64,000 nt of DNA from Thermoanaerobaculia bacterium. Its GTDB lineage: Bacteria > Acidobacteriota > Thermoanaerobaculia > Multivoradales > JAHEKO01. The first letter of the stretch is position 1, and every line of letters begins with the position of its first letter. The stretch is from positions 21,704-85,703 of the forward strand of contig CAMYOG010000047.1 in the NCBI GenBank assembly GCA_947259925.1, in the 5' to 3' direction. A program made the position numbers and the translations under genes. This document shows positions 1,504 through 44,677 of the stretch, piece by piece. Below the pieces are notes generated by a model. It did not search any database. It worked only from the letters and a program-made list of their open reading frames with translations, and was not told the origin of the DNA.

Positions 1504-3291
1504 GTGAAGGTCCCGCGATCGGGGCGCGACCAAGTCATCCTATTTGAGCACCTGGGCCTTTTCAACCGAGCTAGCGGCCCCACAGGCGCGGCTGCTGCAC
1601 TACCATTGAAACCGGTCGTGCCCACACCGAAGGCTCTCCTGGCGGCTGCGCTGGCAGCACTCACCGGCCTGTCCGCCGCGGCGCAAGTCGAGCTGTCCGC
1701 CGAGCTCCTGGTGCGACTGACGGGGGCCGAACCGACCGAAGACGCGACCTCCCCCGACCTCGTCGCATTGGAGGGATGGCTGGGCGAGGCTCGTGTGGTC
1801 GGTCTGGGGGAGAGCCGTCACGGTGTTCACGACTTCCGTCGCCTGGCCCACCGCATTTTCGCCCACCTCGTCGAGACCCAGGGCTTCGACGTATTCGCTC
1901 TCGAGGTAAGCCAGGCCCACGCCGTTCGGCTGAACGACTTCGTTCATGGGCGGCGCGACGACCTGGACGCCCTCATGAGGCAGCGCTGGTGGGTGGCCAA
2001 GGTCTGGTACGACCAGGCGTTGCGGGACCTGCTCCTCTGGATGCGCCGATACAACGAGACCGCGGAGCGCCCGGTCCACTTCGCGGGGTTCGATTTCAAG
2101 CAACCCTCGTTCGCGATGGCAGCCGTCGTCGACGGACTGAGACGCCTCGACCCGAAGGCCGCCGCGGAAGCAGAGAGGGAGTACCAGACGATCTCGAACC
2201 TGGGCGGACTCGGCGTCTTCCCGAACGTCTACGGGCTCACCGCATCGATGAGGGTCGCCTTGCCTGCGCGGACAGGTACGGAAACCCTGCAGGCCGAATT
2301 GATGGTTCGCGGTCGCGGTGTCTCTCACGGCTGGACCGGCCTCTCGCTCGAAGGTGCCTTCTCCGGAGACCCGATCGAGTCTCGATACGTGTCCCCGAAC
2401 GACTTGAGCGAGACCTGGGCCACGCTTCAACTCGACGTTGCGGTCACCGATCGCGTCGACGAGGTCAGGCTGAAGGTCTTTCATCGCGGCAACGGCACCG
2501 TCTGGTTCGATGGTCTGCGGCTGGCTATCGACGGGCGCGAGATCGAGCTGCAAGAAGGCCTCGAGGCGATGGAGGTGCAGGCCCTGGCCATGCCGCTCGT
2601 GCAGGTGATGGATCACGAAGCGAGCCTCGATGATCAGGTCTCGTACGCCGGTGGCAGATCCCTGCGCGTGGACTGTGATCCGGCTCTCGACCGGGCGCTC
2701 CGAGCGGCTCGGAAAGTGGACGCTCTCGTCGACGAGACGCTCGCCGCCGAAACCGCACGCATTTCGAGCTCGCAAGCAGCGTGGTTGCGGCAGATGTCTC
2801 GGCTCGTTGGGCAGGCCACCGAGTGGCGAGCGCTGGTCGAGAGCAACCGGGACGTGTTCATGGCCGAGAACCTCGCCTGGCTACAGCAGCACGGGTTTCC
2901 AGAGAGCCGTGTTCTAGCGCTCGCCCACTCCAGTCATACGAATCGGAAGGCACGAGGCAAGGGAATGGGGCTCGTCCTCGCGGAGGAGTACGGTGATTCG
3001 TACGCGACCGTGACGATGCTGACTCTCTCGGGGCAGCTTCGCTACTTCGGAGATCCTCGAGCCACGGGCCGCGACGACGAGATGGTGCTGTCCTCCCTGA
3101 AGCGGGAAGACGCGGGTCCGCTCGAGCAGCGCCTCGCCGCGCTCGGCACGGGGGATTTGATGCTTTACCTCCGGGGCGCGGCAGAGTCTGGAACGGCTCG
3201 GAAGGCGATCGATCTCGAGAGCGTACCGGTCAAGCAGGTCGCGGATGTGGCCATTCTCCTCAGGGAAGTGGGGCCTCTGCGCCTCGATTGA
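1504..3291 (+). CDS. Erythromycin esterase (Ere) family protein with a C-terminal extension
   Basis: N-terminal region VVGLGESRHGVHDFRRLAHRIFAHLVETQGFDVFALEVSQAHAVRLNDFV matches the Ere/succinoglycan-biosynthesis family signature (GE.SHG..EF...R......GF...A.E). Signal-peptide-like N-terminus. At 595 aa it is longer than the typical ~410. Confidence 0.65.
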   Translation: MKVPRSGRDQVILFEHLGLFNRASGPTGAAAALPLKPVVPTPKALLAAALAALTGLSAAAQVELSAELLVRLTGAEPTEDATSPDLVALEGWLGEARVVGLGESRHGVHDFRRLAHRIFAHLVETQGFDVFALEVSQAHAVRLNDFVHGRRDDLDALMRQRWWVAKVWYDQALRDLLLWMRRYNETAERPVHFAGFDFKQPSFAMAAVVDGLRRLDPKAAAEAEREYQTISNLGGLGVFPNVYGLTASMRVALPARTGTETLQAELMVRGRGVSHGWTGLSLEGAFSGDPIESRYVSPNDLSETWATLQLDVAVTDRVDEVRLKVFHRGNGTVWFDGLRLAIDGREIELQEGLEAMEVQALAMPLVQVMDHEASLDDQVSYAGGRSLRVDCDPALDRALRAARKVDALVDETLAAETARISSSQAAWLRQMSRLVGQATEWRALVESNRDVFMAENLAWLQQHGFPESRVLALAHSSHTNRKARGKGMGLVLAEEYGDSYATVTMLTLSGQLRYFGDPRATGRDDEMVLSSLKREDAGPLEQRLAALGTGDLMLYLRGAAESGTARKAIDLESVPVKQVADVAILLREVGPLRLD

Positions 3292-6475: not shown

Positions 6476-6769
6476 CGTGCCTCCATGTGATGGGTCGTTA
6501 TGGTTCTCGAGTTGCGTCGTCCACAAGACGACTCGTGGCCGTATTCACTCACTTGGCGCAATCGAGTGTGCGCTCGGCTATACCGACAGCTCGAGGCACC
6601 CGGAGACTCAACGAACCGGAGCTCCCTCTGAGGAGGTCCACACCACCCCATCTCATGGCGGGACCCGACTAACGAAAAGACGCGTCAGTATATTGGAGCC
6701 TGAGCGCGACCGACAAATAGCCAGCTGTCTATGTGTGGCCGCCGCTCTCGACCGGGGTCGGGAGGCCCG

Positions 6770-11482: not shown

Positions 11483-12574
11483 CTATCGTAAGGAAGTTCG
11501 TGATACTAGATCGGCGGTGATCTGGTCGACGCGGGTCACGCCGCACATCGCCATCGCCGCGTCGAGCTCGGTCCGCAGGATCTCCAGCACCTGCTCGACG
11601 CCCACCCGCCCGTCGACGGCGAGGCCCCAGAGGATCGGCCGTCCGACCGCCACCGCGTCGGCGCCCAGGGCGAGCGCCTTGACGACGTCGGTACCGCGGC
11701 GCACGCCGCCGTCCACGTACACTTCGATGCCGCCATCGACCGCCTCGACGATCTCCGGCAGGGCGTCGAGCGTCGCCGGGGCGGTGTCGAGCTGTCGGCC
11801 ACCGTGGTTGGAGACGAACACGGCGCCGGCGCCGTTCTCCGCCGCCAACCGGGCGTCGTCGGGATGGATGACCCCTTTGACCACCACCGGCAGGTCGCTC
11901 AACGATCGGAGCCAGCCGAGATCCTCCCAGGTGAGCGACGGATCGAACGTGCTGCCGACGTAAGCCGCAAGCGCCGAGCCGCTCAGCTCCTCGGGCAGTC
12001 CGTCCAGGTCGCTCGCGAGGTTCCCCAGGCCGAGCTCTTCCGGCAGTTGGAACCGGTTGCGCACATCGCGCTCGCGCCGGCCGAGACCGGGCACGTCGAC
12101 GGTCACGACCAGCGCGCTGCAGCCGGCGTCCCGTGCCCGCTCGACCAGCCCCTTGGAGATGGCGCGGTCCTTGTAGACGTAGAGCTGAAACCAGACGTCG
12201 CCATTGGTCGCCGCAACGATCTCCTCGATCGGTCGGTTGGAGAGCGTCGAGGCGATCATCACTGTGCCGGTGGCGCCGGCGGCTGCGGCGGTCGCGCGCT
12301 CGCCGTCGGCGTGGGCCATGCCATGGAAAGCGGTGGGCGCGATCAGGATCGGCATCGAGACCCGACGGCCGAGCACCACCGCGGACGGATCCCGGTCGAC
12401 GACGTCGCGCAGCACACGGTAGCGGAGCTCGAGCCGGTCGTAGGCGCGCTCGTTCCAGCCGAGCGTCAGCTCGTCCCAGGCGCCGCCGGCGTAGTAGTCG
12501 TAGACCATCCGCGGCAGGCGTTCGCGGGCAACCCGGTGGTAGTCGCCGACGTTGATCAGTGTCTCGGCGGTCAC
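11483..12574 (-). CDS. FMN-dependent alpha-hydroxy acid dehydrogenase/oxidase (LldD/glycolate-oxidase family)
   Basis: Family hallmarks present: GTVMIASTLSN, FQLYVYKDR, VVKGVIHPDDA, FVSNHGGRQLD and GGVRRGTDVVKALALGA. Confidence 0.9.
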   Translation of the reverse strand: MTAETLINVGDYHRVARERLPRMVYDYYAGGAWDELTLGWNERAYDRLELRYRVLRDVVDRDPSAVVLGRRVSMPILIAPTAFHGMAHADGERATAAAAGATGTVMIASTLSNRPIEEIVAATNGDVWFQLYVYKDRAISKGLVERARDAGCSALVVTVDVPGLGRRERDVRNRFQLPEELGLGNLASDLDGLPEELSGSALAAYVGSTFDPSLTWEDLGWLRSLSDLPVVVKGVIHPDDARLAAENGAGAVFVSNHGGRQLDTAPATLDALPEIVEAVDGGIEVYVDGGVRRGTDVVKALALGADAVAVGRPILWGLAVDGRVGVEQVLEILRTELDAAMAMCGVTRVDQITADLVSRTSLR

Positions 12575-13056
12575 GATTGCGACAGCTCGCCCAACTGGCG
12601 CGCGTGGTGGGCGAAGTCGTCGATCAGCTCGCCGATCGTGCCGCTGACGGTGAGAGTCTCGTGCCCGTGGCGGACGCCGAAGTCCCTGTCCCAGTCCGCG
12701 GCATCGAGCCGGTGCAGGTAGCTGATCAGGTCGGTGGCTGCTTCGTGCAGCTCGCTCAGCAGCTTGGTCGGGTCCTTCGACGGGAAGTTGCGGACCAGCT
12801 GGGCGTTGACGTTGGAGTAGTCCTCGCCTGGATCAAGGTCGTAGGAAGGGAGCTCGCCGCGACGGATCTGTTCGCTGCCGGTCACCGCGTAGCGCGTCCA
12901 GCCGATCAGGTGCGCGACGACGTCGCGGGGCGACCAGGCGCCGAGGTGGCCGAGGAACTCACCCGGCCGCAGTGCCTCGACCTGGCTTTCGAACGACTCG
13001 ATGCCGCGCTTCAGGCGATCGATCTCGAGCTCGATCTCGCTGCGCGAGGTGGACAT
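12571..13056 (-). CDS. ClbS/DfsB (DUF1706) or DinB-like four-helix-bundle protein
   Basis: 161 aa. The WSPRDVVAHLIGWTRY motif resembles the ClbS/DfsB family. ATGA overlap with the oxidase gene. Confidence 0.5.
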   Translation of the reverse strand: MSTSRSEIELEIDRLKRGIESFESQVEALRPGEFLGHLGAWSPRDVVAHLIGWTRYAVTGSEQIRRGELPSYDLDPGEDYSNVNAQLVRNFPSKDPTKLLSELHEAATDLISYLHRLDAADWDRDFGVRHGHETLTVSGTIGELIDDFAHHARQLGELSQS

Positions 13057-13060
13057 CGGC

Positions 13061-14485
13061 TCAACCGCCGCGCGCCTGGTGGGCGTTGAGGAACGTCTGC
13101 GGCTCGCTGAACACCTTGGCGATGTTCATCCCCTTGCGAAGCGAGCTCAAGCTGACCTTGCCGGTCGCCAGGGCGGCGAGCATCCCGAGGTACGTCTGCG
13201 CCTTGCCGCGCTCGCGGTAGCGCACCTCGAGCGCCCATTTCCAGAGGTCCGAGAACTCCTGGTAGAACTCCTCGAGCGGCAGCTTGGTCGGCAGGACGGT
13301 GTGGATGATGTCGAACATCTCCCAGTCCTCGGCGACGACGTCGGCCGCGACCTCGTCCCAGAGATCGGTTCCAGGAAGCGGCGTCAGCACGGTGAAACCG
13401 CTGTTGTAGGTGCCCATCCGGGCGATCCACTCCTTGAGCTGCGTGAACTCGTCGCGATCCCAGTCGGGATCGACGATGAAATTGCAGGTGAAACCGACGC
13501 CGAGCTCCTTGAGGATCTCGATCGCGCGCACGTTGTTGGCCGCCTTGTTGCTCTTATTGACCGAAGCGAGGCCTTCGTCGTCGACCTTCTCGACCCCCAG
13601 GAAGATCGCCAGATCGCCACAGTCCTTCCACATCTCGATCAGATCGGGGAAGCGGCAGATGATGTCGGTTCGCGTCTGGACGGTGAAGTACTTCCTGATC
13701 CCCGAGGCCTTGATCTGCTTGGCGAGCTCGCGGCCGCGCTTGACGTTCATCCAGAAGATGTCGTCGGTGATGAAGACGTTCGGGGCCTCGATCTGACCGA
13801 GCTCTTCGACCACCCGCTCCGGGGACTTCTCGCGGAACGAAGACTCGTGGAATTTCCAGACCGAGCAGAAATTGCACTTGAACGGACAGCCGCGCGCGGT
13901 CTCCATCAGCGCCAGCGGCTTGCGGAAGTTGATGTAGTAGTGGGGCGCGTACTCTTTGATCAGGTGGCGTGCGGGCAGCGGTAGCTCGTCGATGTTGCGG
14001 CGTGCCGGCGCCGGTCCGGTCGGATGGAGGCCGTCGTCGGTGTTGACGAACAGGCCCGGCGCCCGCTTCAGATCGCCATGCTTCTCGAGCGCTTCGACGA
14101 GAGCGGAGACGACCTCCTCGCCGTCACCGACGGTGATCGCGTCGATCGAGGGGTCGGTGAACCACTCCGGATCGCGCGAGGCGTCGTGCCCACCGACGAC
14201 CACGAACGCCCCCGGGAAGCGCTGTCGGATCTGGCGAGTCAGCTTGATCGTCCGATTGCGCTCGGTGGTGAAGTTGCACTGGACGCCGACCATCTGCGGC
14301 TCGAACGCGTCGAGCTTGGCCATGCCGCGCTCGTTCGAGTCGAGACGCAGGTCGACGATCAGGCACTCGTGTCCGTCTTCTTCGAGCGCAGCGGCGACGC
14401 ACTCGAGCCCCAAAGGCTCGACGAAGGTCAGCATCTCCAGTCCCAGGATGCCGCCGATGGGTGGCTTGACGAACGCCGCCTTCAT
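13061..14485 (-). CDS. B12-binding-domain radical SAM protein
   Basis: N-terminal cobalamin-binding domain (ECLIVDLRLD...VVVGGHDAS) plus the radical-SAM cysteine triad CPFKCNFCS. 474 aa. Confidence 0.85.
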   Translation of the reverse strand: MKAAFVKPPIGGILGLEMLTFVEPLGLECVAAALEEDGHECLIVDLRLDSNERGMAKLDAFEPQMVGVQCNFTTERNRTIKLTRQIRQRFPGAFVVVGGHDASRDPEWFTDPSIDAITVGDGEEVVSALVEALEKHGDLKRAPGLFVNTDDGLHPTGPAPARRNIDELPLPARHLIKEYAPHYYINFRKPLALMETARGCPFKCNFCSVWKFHESSFREKSPERVVEELGQIEAPNVFITDDIFWMNVKRGRELAKQIKASGIRKYFTVQTRTDIICRFPDLIEMWKDCGDLAIFLGVEKVDDEGLASVNKSNKAANNVRAIEILKELGVGFTCNFIVDPDWDRDEFTQLKEWIARMGTYNSGFTVLTPLPGTDLWDEVAADVVAEDWEMFDIIHTVLPTKLPLEEFYQEFSDLWKWALEVRYRERGKAQTYLGMLAALATGKVSLSSLRKGMNIAKVFSEPQTFLNAHQARGG

Positions 14486-14495
14486 GACCGACCGA

Positions 14496-14825
14496 TCACA
14501 CTAGCATGCGGTCGATCAGCACCGGCTCGATCCACGTGTGGACCGCTACCGCCGAGGGGAAGCCCAGAGTGCTGGCCGCGACCGCCACCACTTGCAGGAT
14601 CTCCTCCTCGGTCGCGCCGGCGTCGAGCGCCTTGCGCGTAGCGGACGTGACCGCCCCTTGCCGCATCGCGCCTACGGCGATCGCCAGCTTCATGAGTCGC
14701 AGCGCCTTCTCATCCGCGGGTCCTTGCCGCTCGACTTCGCGGACGCGGTCCCAGGCCTCGCCCAGCTCGGGAAAGCGCGCGACGAAACGGCTGTAGGCTT
14801 TCGGGGCTTTCGACTCTTCCGACAT
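14496..14825 (-). CDS. Carboxymuconolactone decarboxylase family protein (AhpD-like)
   Basis: 109-aa AhpD-like fold (EKALRLMKLAIAVGAMRQGAVTSATRKALDAGATEEEI). First gene of the minus-strand operon. Confidence 0.75.
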   Translation of the reverse strand: MSEESKAPKAYSRFVARFPELGEAWDRVREVERQGPADEKALRLMKLAIAVGAMRQGAVTSATRKALDAGATEEEILQVVAVAASTLGFPSAVAVHTWIEPVLIDRMLV

Positions 14826-14878
14826 GGCCTGAGGATTCTATCCACGCTGGCCGCTGCGCGGCCTGATCCGGAGGGCCT

Positions 14879-15025
14879 GATCCGGTGACAGGATACTCAA
14901 CTCGGGGAATGACAGGTTGCTCATTTGCCTTTGGCCAGACCGCGGCACGGGGGCAGATGAGTAACCTGTCACCGTATCTCGCCAGGCCGCGGAATGGGGG
15001 AGATGAGTATCCTGTCACCGGATCT
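14879..15025. repeat. MITE-like nested inverted-repeat element, copy A
   Basis: Terminal inverted repeats GATCCGGTGACAGGATACTCAAC (14879-14901) and GATGAGTATCCTGTCACCGGATC (15003-15025). Two inner copies of the same 17-nt core (ATGACAGGTTGCTCATT at 14909-14925; GATGAGTAACCTGTCAC at 14957-14973) give an arrow pattern of > > < <. The right TIR encodes the last codons and the TGA stop of lysK. Confidence 0.6.
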
Positions 15026-16646
15026 TGGGGGGGGTGGCGAACCGCTCGAGCGCTTCCCGCAACTTGGTGGCTGCGGTCTCGCGCCCGAGCACGTTCACGA
15101 ATCCGCCCAGGCGCGGGCCGCGCGCCTGTCGGATCAGAGCGATGTAGAGCAGCCGAAAGAGCCGGCCCGGCTTGATCTCGAGCTCCTTGGCGAGGGCGAA
15201 GATCTCCCCCTGGACGACCTCGTCCTCGGCGTCCCCGGCTTCCAGGAACGCGGCCAGGCGCTCGATCGCCAGGCTCTCGGCCACCGTGATCGTCTCACTC
15301 TCCGGTCCGATCTCGCTCTCGCGTGCCACCGCCTGGTAGTAGTCGAGCGCGCGGTCGATCTGATCCCGCGCTTCCGGCAGGCCGAGGGCCTCCGCGGCGT
15401 ACTGATCGGTGCGCGCGAGATACTCGACGACCGCCTCGACCTCGGCACTCCCGGTACCGCCGATGATGTTGAGCAGCAGCCCGAGGTCGAGGCGCAGCGG
15501 CCGCTCGTCGGGCGGGTCGAAGAAGGTCAGGAACCGGTAGGTCGCGCGCGCGTTCTGGGTGATCTGATCGTCGGCGCCGTCCGAGTAGTAGACCTCCTCG
15601 ATCGCCGCCAGGTCGCGCGAGTACTCCGGGATGCGCCCCAGGCTGACCCGCTTCGCCTGGGTGGGGTTGTCGAAGAAGAGCAGGCTGAGGGACTCCTGGG
15701 GCGCGAAGCGTAGCCACTCGGTCGGCGCCAGCACGTCGCCCTTCGACTTCGAGATCTTGGCGCCGCTCTCGTCCAGGAAGAGCTCGTAGAACATGTGCAT
15801 CGGCGGCTCGGTCTCGAAGATCTCACGGCAGATCCGATCGCTGATCTCCGCCGATGGGATCAAGTCCTTACCGTAGAGCTCGTAGTCGATCCCGAGCGCG
15901 AACCAGCGCGCCGCCCAGTCGATCTTCCACGGAAACTTGCCGCCGCCACCGAGTAGCGACCGGGTCGCCCGCTTGCCGCACGGCTCGTTGGCGCCGACCG
16001 GCACCGAGCAGGTGTACTCGACCTCGGCGCTCTCGGCGTCGAAGCCGAGGACGCGCGTCGAGTAGATCCGTCCGCACTCCTCGCAGATGACCATGAACGG
16101 GAACCAGTCCTTCATGGTCTCGGCGGAGAGATCGGCGGCGAGGATCTCGCGCACCTGGTCCGCTCTCTTCAGGACCGCGCGGATCGCCTCGTCGAACGTA
16201 CCCTTCCGGTATTCCTCGGACGCCGATCGGAAGTCGACGTCGACGCGGGTGAGCGCCGCCATCTCGTGTAAACGGCCGTTCATGTTGCCGGAGAACGAGT
16301 CGGCGGTGCCGAACGGATCGGGAATCGCCGACAGGGGCCGCCCGAGATGCTCTTCGAGCCCATCGGGAAAGCCGCTCGGCACCCGTCGGAGACCGTCCAT
16401 GTCGTCGGAGAAGGCGATGATGGTTGGCTCGTAGCCGCGCCGCCTGATCGCCTCGGCGACGAACGCGGTGCGCACGATCTCCCCGAAGGTCCCCAGATGA
16501 GGCGGCCCGGACGGTCCGAAGCCGGTCTCGAGTCGCACCGTCTCGGCGTCCTTCAGACGCTTGGCGAGTCGCTTGGCCTCCTTGTTCGGCCAGAGCGGGT
16601 AGTTCTTCTGGGTACCGGCGCGCTTGCGGCCGGAAGGCTCCGACAT
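15015..16646 (-). CDS. lysK: Lysine--tRNA ligase, class I
   Basis: HIGH-type motif PSGPPHLGT and KMSKS-type motif AKISKSKG. 543 aa, typical of class I LysRS. Internal Met (MSEPSGRK...) chosen as start. Confidence 0.9.
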   Translation of the reverse strand: MSEPSGRKRAGTQKNYPLWPNKEAKRLAKRLKDAETVRLETGFGPSGPPHLGTFGEIVRTAFVAEAIRRRGYEPTIIAFSDDMDGLRRVPSGFPDGLEEHLGRPLSAIPDPFGTADSFSGNMNGRLHEMAALTRVDVDFRSASEEYRKGTFDEAIRAVLKRADQVREILAADLSAETMKDWFPFMVICEECGRIYSTRVLGFDAESAEVEYTCSVPVGANEPCGKRATRSLLGGGGKFPWKIDWAARWFALGIDYELYGKDLIPSAEISDRICREIFETEPPMHMFYELFLDESGAKISKSKGDVLAPTEWLRFAPQESLSLLFFDNPTQAKRVSLGRIPEYSRDLAAIEEVYYSDGADDQITQNARATYRFLTFFDPPDERPLRLDLGLLLNIIGGTGSAEVEAVVEYLARTDQYAAEALGLPEARDQIDRALDYYQAVARESEIGPESETITVAESLAIERLAAFLEAGDAEDEVVQGEIFALAKELEIKPGRLFRLLYIALIRQARGPRLGGFVNVLGRETAATKLREALERFATPPKIR

Positions 16647-16795
16647 AGCAGAGAAGTCTAGCGTCGGTTCGTCCGCTTTGCGACCGAGCATTCGGAGCTG
16701 GCGCGCACGGTCTCGGCCGAAGGCTAGGACGCCGCCGACCTACCTGGGTACGTCTTGCGTCGAGCCGGACGCGCCCGTAGCATCCGGCGGCGAAG

Positions 16796-44386: not shown

Positions 44387-44677
44387 CTTTTCATCGACCA
44401 CGACAAGGGCAACCTCGGCGTGAGCCGGGGACGCAAAGCCAGGGGCCCGCACACGGGCTAGCCGAGCCGCCGAACGGTCTTTCCCGGTCGGACTGGAATA
44501 CCTGCGGGCCGGGGGGAGGTGACCTGACCTCTCGTGACTGGGGTGTTGAGACCGTGAGAAACGGCGGCAACTACGAATACTCGAGGCGGACAGTGTCCGG
44601 GTGGTCGAGGAGCGCCACCAACCGGGGGGAAGAAGAGTGTTGATCTGAGTCGACACTTCGTCGACTTGTCTCTCGTC

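Follow-up and report, generated by a model that had tools for sequence, protein, structure and literature searches.

A cluster of four short inverted repeats at the end of lysK in a Thermoanaerobaculia genome and its probable membership in an acidobacterial family of transposase-associated repeats

Where the gene for class I lysyl-tRNA synthetase (lysK) ends in contig CAMYOG010000047.1 of a Thermoanaerobaculia bacterium, an element of nested inverted repeats at positions 14879-15025 (copy A) spans the gene end and most of the spacer that follows, which raises the question of what the element is and how it came to reach into a coding sequence. Positions are those of the window, meaning the whole stretch of 64,000 nt that was analyzed. 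A preliminary description had taken copy A for a novel element of ~150 bp with the architecture of a miniature inverted-repeat transposable element (MITE), of a repetitive extragenic palindromic (REP)-like element, or of a tandem operator array. We consider it, with a probability of about 0.78, to be a cluster of four ~30-nt interspersed repeats, arranged as two nested convergent pairs, that belongs to an acidobacterial family associated with REP-associated tyrosine transposases (RAYTs) of the TIRYT type and mobilized by a Y1 transposase.

Copy A contains four units with the core GTGACAGGWTRCTCA in the order + + - - (> > < <), the cores being located at 14885-14899, 14909-14923 (where A takes the place of G as the first base), 14958-14972 and 15004-15018. 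The outer pair of arms (14879-14903 and 15000-15024) shows 96% complementarity over 25 nt, and the inner pair (14910-14929 and 14952-14971) 90% over 20 nt. The fourfold core in this order, the outer terminal inverted repeats and the palindrome nested within them had all been noted in the preliminary description and are confirmed here. When up to 2 mismatches are allowed, the core pattern has 7 matches in the window against 0.21 from shuffled sequence, and 0 of 100 shuffles reached 7. The parts of copy A are listed below.

14879..14906, plus strand: outer unit 1, the left terminal arm (GATCCGGTGACAGGATACTCAACTCGGG); core with 0 mismatches, nhmmer unit profile E=3.8e-08
14907..14931, plus strand: inner unit 2 (GAATGACAGGTTGCTCATTTGCC), 5'-truncated and without GATCCGG; core with 1 mismatch to the degenerate pattern
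14950..14979, minus strand: inner unit 3 (AGATACGGTGACAGGTTACTCATCTGCCCC on the minus strand), which pairs with unit 2; core match, nhmmer E=5e-07
14997..15025, minus strand: outer unit 4 (AGATCCGGTGACAGGATACTCATCTCCCC on the minus strand), with the last codons and TGA of lysK; core with 0 mismatches, nhmmer E=6.9e-09
14860..14885, plus strand: tandem partial duplication (GGCCTGATCCGG twice, period 14) over the 5' end of unit 1; direct repeat

Searching the 64-kb window with a profile of the unit identified two clusters only, comprising 8 units: copy A and a second cluster at 25853-26009 (copy B). Copy B has the same four-unit build with one unit decayed, and MAFFT alignments run in both orientations match it to copy A most closely when one of the two is reversed.

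25853..25881, plus strand: outer unit 1, abutting the ATG (25850-25852, minus strand) of a phosphotransferase/aminotransferase fusion gene; core with 0 mismatches, nhmmer E=1.1e-08
25899..25927, plus strand: inner unit 2, following a tandem duplication of TGAATTCGGTG (twice, 25886-25907); core match, nhmmer profile
25950..25973, minus strand: inner unit 3, decayed, with ~15 of 22 positions identical to the unit and one deletion (MAFFT)
25980..26010, minus strand: outer unit 4 (GAGATCCGGTGACAGGATACCGATCTC on the minus strand), an arm of a 29-nt, 86% complementary inverted repeat; core with 2 mismatches, nhmmer E=1.6e-06

Copies A and B have unrelated spacers, which do not align (MAFFT). Because the two copies share their units and not their spacers, the repeated entity is the ~30-nt unit, and the 150-bp composite that had been proposed as the element does not hold up as such.

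The consensus of the unit is ~30 nt long and reads [A/G]ATCCGGTGACAGGATACTCA[A/T][C/T]T[C/G]CCC. A scan with the exact 18-mer CCGGTGACAGGATACTCA through one genome per species (185,579 species) returned 105 loci, 89 of them in metagenome-assembled genomes (MAGs) of Acidobacteriota, namely Bryobacterales, Thermoanaerobaculia including Multivoradales, and unclassified bins. The 16 loci outside the phylum approximate our own chance estimate of ~17 (596 Gb x 2 / 4^18). In Bryobacterales the unit reads AAATCCGGTGACAGGATACTCAWTTCCCCGATTT, and single MAGs of this order harbor at least 16-22 exact copies of the 18-mer. The acidobacterial loci comprise 76 singletons, 25 convergent '+-' doublets and 2 complex groups; neighboring units are arranged '+-' 32 times and '-+' once. 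The family is mostly extragenic, with 18% of units, as opposed to 76% of random positions, falling deep within long open frames, and some singletons are retained as orthologues in different MAGs, one example being found in the spacer that precedes murG. Among 32 doublets examined, a flanking direct repeat is missing from 16 and measures 1 nt in 14, and neither copy A nor copy B has any, so that there is no consistent target-site duplication. The inner distances between the cores of a doublet range from 24 to 110 nt. The nearest relative carrying the family (locus L074) shows the same > > < < build as the window.

Some minor features of the units and of the scan were seen as well. The first 10-15 nt of the unit (…ATCCGGTGAC…) are often tandemly duplicated just outside the full unit with a period of 11-14 nt and with break points that are not uniform, as at 14860-14885 and 25886-25907 in the window, at 6650-6745 and 6815-6850 in L074, and also in L033 and L093. 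Singletons have an orientation bias of ~2:1 with respect to flanking genes, which rests on crude open reading frame (ORF) calls and non-independent orthologous loci and is not relied on. A family extending across phyla, or serving as a target of the insertion sequence (IS) family IS110, was considered on account of the matches in Syntrophales (L010, L079) and in L051 and L054 and was rejected, the count fitting chance and the loci being unrelated to the family. The 18-mer matches in Desulfobacterota are the 5' region of a conserved small ORF in a duplicated segment of 357 bp that excludes the IS110 gene, and in Syntrophales the agreement of the 18-mer with the acidobacterial core is probably fortuitous. 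In the region concerned (L079 2347-3399 and 3497-3851; L010 6701-7057) the duplicated segment starts the small Cys-rich ORF, and an IS110-family transposase gene lies ~170 nt off in one copy.

The association with a transposase comes from five MAGs (L003, L021, L045, L105 and L023), each of which contains one locus where a Y1 transposase gene of ~240 codons is located between two inverted units. The downstream unit encodes the last codons of the transposase (…EIGE) and its stop. The protein (240 aa) matches Pfam Y1_Tnp with 47 bits, above the cut-off, and NCBIfam REP_Tyr_transpos, the model of REP-associated tyrosine transposases, with 72.5 bits (E=3e-20), below the cut-off of 80. Invariant among 16 homologues are NHVH (H60, H62), W99-Q100 and Y119-I-E-R-N-P, which include the HuH motif and the catalytic Tyr, within Y-x-x-x-N-P, of class 2 TnpA_REP enzymes, and the homologues further share a WSS motif (YPWSSA) and a conserved C-terminal extension (residues 150-220). 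In searches with a profile of these homologues the best match in PDB was 4ER8, the TnpA_REP of E. coli (E=3.7e-4), ahead of the IS200/IS605 transposases. By its motifs and length, compared with Table 1 of PMC6006769, the predicted enzyme falls in the RAYT-type HUH-Y1 transposases of subclass 2.1 (TIRYT). A class 3 Y1 transposase as described for Solibacter (PMC6006769) was rejected, since that class has the motifs W[TA] and YV..EQ where WQ and YIERNP are found here. Of the possibilities raised in the preliminary description, it is thus the REP-like one that is borne out, by a dispersed and mostly extragenic family that, in five related genomes, brackets a RAYT-type Y1 gene with inverted copies.

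Many of the transposase homologues end in …IGE, IGV, IGI or IGK, which fits a downstream unit (5430-5447 in L003) that encodes the last residues and the stop over a broad span of the family. In L023 a tRNA gene (1947-2019, minus strand) is located ~170 nt from a unit flanking the transposase gene.

Repeats of this general kind have been published. TIRYT genes are flanked by inverted repeats (TIRs) that are not stem-loops, and the TIRs occur as singles, dimers and groups in moderately abundant families, with Acidobacteria among the hosts (Di Nocera et al. 2013, PMC3733652). TIRYTs have been equated with RAYT subclass 2.1, for which the TIR consensus is often GGGG[AT][CG]A[CG] (Quentin et al. 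2018, PMC6006769), and correspond to RAYT Group 1 of Bertels et al. 2017 (PMC5581495). The acidobacterial family resembles these TIRs and TIRtrons in that non-palindromic inverted repeats flank a RAYT-like Y1 gene, one of them overlapping the 3' end of the gene; in being moderately abundant (tens per genome) as single, dimeric and grouped units; and in a protein of ~238-240 aa with NHVH, WQ, YI-x-x-NP, WSS and the conserved C-terminal extension. It also shares Acidobacteria as hosts, and the repeat contains a putative GGGGWSAS-like motif: compared with the published motif, the core GGTGACAG matches 7 of 8 positions and the variant GGGGACAG of L098 all 8 (8/8). However, the exact sequence of the acidobacterial repeat is not in the searchable papers, and for TIR families we found no description of stop-codon donation (here in about one third of units), of clusters of four nested units or of a tandemly duplicated 5' end.

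With REP sequences and BIMEs and the TnpA_REP transposase (4ER8) the family has in common short extragenic repeats that are found singly, as inverted pairs and in clusters, that flank a single-copy HUH-Y1 gene, that lack target duplications, and that are placed at the 3' ends of genes and within operons. Unlike a REP, the acidobacterial unit is not a stem-loop and carries no GTAG/CGTC tag, and its transposase scores below the NCBIfam RayT cut-off (72.5 vs 80) and has a C-terminal extension of ~100 aa. Resemblance to REPINs (Bertels and Rainey 2011, PMC3116915) is seen in the two inverted units with a short spacer that form a long hairpin, the strictly convergent orientation (32 vs 1) and the association with a RAYT. 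However, in the acidobacterial family neither length nor sequence of the spacer is conserved, singletons exceed doublets three to one, and the doublet does not act like a replicating unit.

The preliminary description had not recognized the core as part of a known family, which was fair with respect to the sequence itself, though not to the class, which is published. The exact core is absent from the searchable literature in a bacterial context, an Rfam search of the window and ten related loci gave no match on the units (only generic hairpin matches to miRNA precursors, below threshold), and blastn of the element against PLSDB plasmids gave no match. The repeats are a new sequence family of a published kind, that of RAYT/TIRYT-associated interspersed repeats, and not a new class of element.

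Several results weigh against the assignment of copy A to a family mobilized by a RAYT. The 64-kb window contains no Y1 transposase gene, so the link between its units and the enzyme rests on other genomes that share the core. The related loci were all found by the exact 18-mer, which makes the conservation of the core partly a product of the search. Moreover, a 20-mer of the window's own variant was found in only one contig of the JGI metagenomes (L109, 1.8 kb, uninformative). Single units fold no better than shuffled sequences (z from -1.6 to +1.2) and have no GTAG or CGTC tag at either end; because of this absence of a fold and of the GTAG tag the unit does not qualify as a classical REP. 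Within a doublet, the arms show no closer similarity than units that are not partners (on average 4.55 differences within doublets vs 4.47 between doublets of the same MAG, n=20), which leaves replication as a doublet in the manner of REPINs unsupported. As to the effects on transcription and translation proposed below, a consensus sigma-70 scan found no full promoter in either copy, and a terminator scan of both strands at 14700-15200 and 25700-26200 found no terminator-like site and no U-tract. Finally, we know of no TIRYT that has been demonstrated to move DNA.

How the family came to form the end of lysK is best considered together with its neighborhood, for which the following features are relevant.

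15015..16691, minus strand: lysK, class I lysyl-tRNA synthetase; Pfam tRNA-synt_1f, 3e-108
14835..14840, minus strand: TAGAAT, a -10-like hexamer 9 nt upstream of the ATG of the CMD/AhpD-like gene and outside the element; alignment with relatives

The final codons of lysK (AAG ATC CGG TGA, K-I-R-stop) lie inside the outer right unit, and the TGA (15015-15017) is that of GGTGACAGG, so that the stop codon of lysK is supplied by unit 4 of copy A. Downstream of lysK on the minus strand are, by Pfam, CMD/AhpD-like, B12-radical SAM (B12-rSAM), DinB-like and FMN-dehydrogenase genes, the first of which has its ATG (14823-14825) 53 nt from the left arm of copy A. Both positions agree with the preliminary description, which had the right arm encode K-I-R and the TGA and the left arm lie upstream of the AhpD-like/B12-rSAM operon. 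Of the lysK ORF as listed (558 aa), ~16 residues at the N-terminus are in excess of its closest homologues, which start MSEP or MTEP; the true start is probably an internal ATG (MSEPSGRK…) within 16641-16691 on the minus strand.

Donation of a stop codon is a trait of the family as a whole. Long open frames (at least 450 nt) enter the units mostly in the frame that meets the TGA: 30 vs 10 and 13 in the forward direction and 15 vs 4 and 7 in reverse (121 units), and the forward TGA of the unit ends such a frame in 24% of units vs 3.9% of random TGA triplets, figures that are indicative only because orthologous loci were counted more than once. About a third of the units donate the stop codon of the upstream gene. 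Given this bias toward the frame of the unit's TGA, the case of lysK is typical of the family, and the K-I-R-stop of lysK corresponds to the K-I-R/W-stop reading in a gene of 800 codons in L003. The simplest reading of the frame bias is purifying selection, under which an insertion in the last codons of a gene survives if a stop follows immediately. The GTG of the core is not enriched as a start codon through a GTGA stop/start overlap (17.5% vs 35% for random GTG). Such an overlap encoded by a unit is seen at orthologous positions in four Bryobacterales MAGs (L002 ~6485, L007 ~1905, L035 ~5219, L062 ~5490), where GTGA closes a frame of ~1250 nt and opens one of ~714 nt (VTGYS…AYAVR), and is not general in the family.

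A comparison of lysK 3' ends with those of relatives had been set beforehand as a check on the element. The nearest LysK homologues, 76-84% identical, have differing short tails after …ERF, none of which ends in KIR, and no repeat is found there. The outcome named in the preliminary description as speaking against the element, an identical lysK C-terminus in relatives that have no repeat, was not observed. Locus L106, on a contig of 5.1 Mb, has the same gene order (lysK-CMD-rSAM-DinB-FMN_dh) with a spacer of 175 nt and no unit. MAG OFTM233 (L107) likewise has no unit at lysK and carries two four-unit clusters elsewhere, around the carbonic anhydrase gene in L074. In L107 the lysK-CMD synteny is broken by ~4 kb (11776-15856) with a Peptidase_S74 gene, an FG-GAP repeat gene and an RHH/PemK toxin-antitoxin pair. 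In the window the lysK-CMD spacer measures 189 nt, of which 147 nt are element; as this compares with 175 nt in L106, the element replaced the old spacer and was not added to it. Alignment of the spacers gave no clean empty site because of their strong divergence, the parts that can be aligned being the coding ends and the TAGAAT box alone. G-TAGAAT-C is aligned among the window, L106 and L107, and lies 9-41 nt before the CMD start across these three genomes. Because TAGAAT is outside the element and conserved in relatives without the element, the downstream CMD/B12-rSAM operon appears to keep its own -10 box and promoter.

These observations suggest a mechanism by homology to TnpA_REP and to the IS200/IS605 transposases. 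In this mechanism the Y1 transposase would act in trans on the units, which would be non-autonomous DNA, and would cut and rejoin them in single-stranded form, a chemistry that would leave no target-site duplication. New units would tend to land beside existing ones in convergent orientation and so give rise to doublets and nested clusters. Copy A would have landed in the variable C-terminal tail of lysK, where it contributes the final two or three codons along with the TGA, and would have replaced most of the lysK-CMD spacer. In the lysK transcript the cluster is modeled to fold as a long interrupted hairpin starting from the stop codon, which would act as a 3'-end barrier or stabilizer. Because the stem begins at the stop codon, it may also hinder termination of lysK translation.

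Among the other explanations, a structured RNA under selection survives best, yet we regard it as quite unlikely. Here the function of the RNA, as a terminator or attenuator, an mRNA-stabilizing 3' hairpin or a small RNA, would explain the presence of the element. Copy A is located exactly at the 3' end of lysK and is predicted to fold very stably, with -82.6 kcal/mol (z = -8.75 vs shuffles) on the transcribed minus strand and -101.7 kcal/mol (z = -10.7) on the plus strand, and REP hairpins stabilize upstream mRNA in E. coli. Liang, Rudd and Deutscher are said to have found in 2015 that REPs within ~15 nt of a stop codon lower translation. However, a hairpin equally strong on both strands is what a DNA palindrome gives; there is no Rfam match, and neither a U-tract nor a terminator consensus is present; mismatched positions in the arms of doublets lack compensation, and the similarity of the arms does not exceed that of non-partners; in copy B the inner hairpin has decayed; and most members of the family are single units that do not fold. 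A structured-RNA role is compatible with the RAYT-associated repeat family as a secondary effect, not as the origin of the element.

It is very improbable that copy A is a classical MITE, that is, a deletion derivative of a DDE-type IS in which the 150-bp composite itself is mobile by cut-and-paste through terminal inverted repeats of 23-25 bp. Bacterial MITEs (Correia/NEMIS, ERIC, RUP) and Rickettsia palindromic elements (RPEs) are similar in their ~150 bp, their terminal inverted repeats and the way in which they adjoin or overlap coding ends; Correia elements carry promoter elements and RPEs are translated. The outer arms of copy A do resemble terminal inverted repeats, and two copies of similar size and build occur in one window, with the same > > < < build in L074. 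Unlike those elements, copies A and B have no target-site duplication, nor have 30 of the 32 doublets, and there is no conserved interior, the spacers of A and B being unrelated and the core distances of doublets so variable. In the absence of target-site duplications and with inner distances of 24-110 nt, the doublets are not DDE-type MITEs. Three quarters of the occurrences of the family are single units, and it is the 30-nt unit that is repeated. Between inverted units, no transposase other than a Y1 HUH enzyme was found, and no DDE-type parent was seen in any locus. On these grounds the MITE suggested in the preliminary description is not sustained.

Least probable of all is a regulatory operator array, in which a local transcription factor would bind the four cores and control lysK and/or the B12-rSAM operon, and likewise the divergent pair at copy B: the cores are conserved where flanks and spacers drift, and both copies are in intergenic control regions with copy B filling a divergent promoter region, but the unit is found beside functionally unrelated genes at ~100 sites elsewhere, often at 3' ends or inside operons (e.g. 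ftsW-murG), it flanks a transposase gene, syntenic relatives have the same operons without it, and half-sites 45-120 nt apart are unlike an operator. This dispersal across genomes and absence from syntenic relatives leave the operator array of the preliminary description without support from the distribution, and the nested palindrome is probably no regulator dedicated to the lysK/B12-rSAM locus.

Copy B is located between divergent genes, the phosphotransferase/class III aminotransferase fusion (23540-25852, minus strand) and a 4HBT thioesterase. The units are absent from this site in three relatives (L110, L111 and L112), in which the N-terminus MxRAKAP of the fusion protein is kept; hence the ATG at 25850-25852 is native. 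An extension of the copy B inverted repeat to CCATAGA/TCTATGG, by which the repeat would supply the ATG, was rejected, since the right TATGG is native sequence that L111 shares and the gene natively starts at this conserved ATG. In the three relatives a TAnnnT hexamer (TAGGCT or GATACT) lies 7-11 nt upstream of the ATG of the fusion gene, and in the window, where the unit abuts the ATG, the TATCCT of the unit is located 12 nt upstream. We suggest, with low confidence, that the copy B unit might now supply the -10 element of the 23540-25852 gene, its native upstream region having been replaced. TAnnnT hexamers (TAGAAT, TAGGCT, GATACT) mostly lie 7-12 nt before start codons in the window and in L106, L107 and L110-L112, with the TAGAAT of L107 at 41 nt; this spacing suggests that leaderless or very short-leader mRNAs may be used in this lineage. 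Within 26028-26039 on the plus strand, the thioesterase probably starts at the second ATG (26037, MREVGRPVIH), matching MQEVGRPVIH in L111.

For the lysK locus the result removes a candidate novelty, in that dispersed, transposase-associated repeat DNA probably takes the place of a new regulatory device. To the known bacterial repeats it contributes a family that extends through the phylum Acidobacteriota, has a fixed core of 16 nt and is tied to a RAYT subclass without a demonstrated substrate. The units reshape gene ends by donating stops and overwriting spacers, which matters for the annotation of 3' ends and promoters in these MAGs. An unlikely extension would see the family as a portable 'gene-boundary' module in Acidobacteriota, combining frame-biased stop donation with a -10 box for leaderless or short-leader mRNA as at copy B, and at the same time as the first well-populated, sequence-defined substrate of subclass 2.1 RAYTs. 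To our knowledge, earlier surveys reported no REP-like partner for this subclass (TIRYTs).

Apart from the repeats, the window contains a c-di-GMP-I riboswitch aptamer (RF01051) at 44398-44474 on the plus strand, which scores 45.3 bits vs a gathering score of 35 and is the only Rfam match at the gathering threshold in the window.

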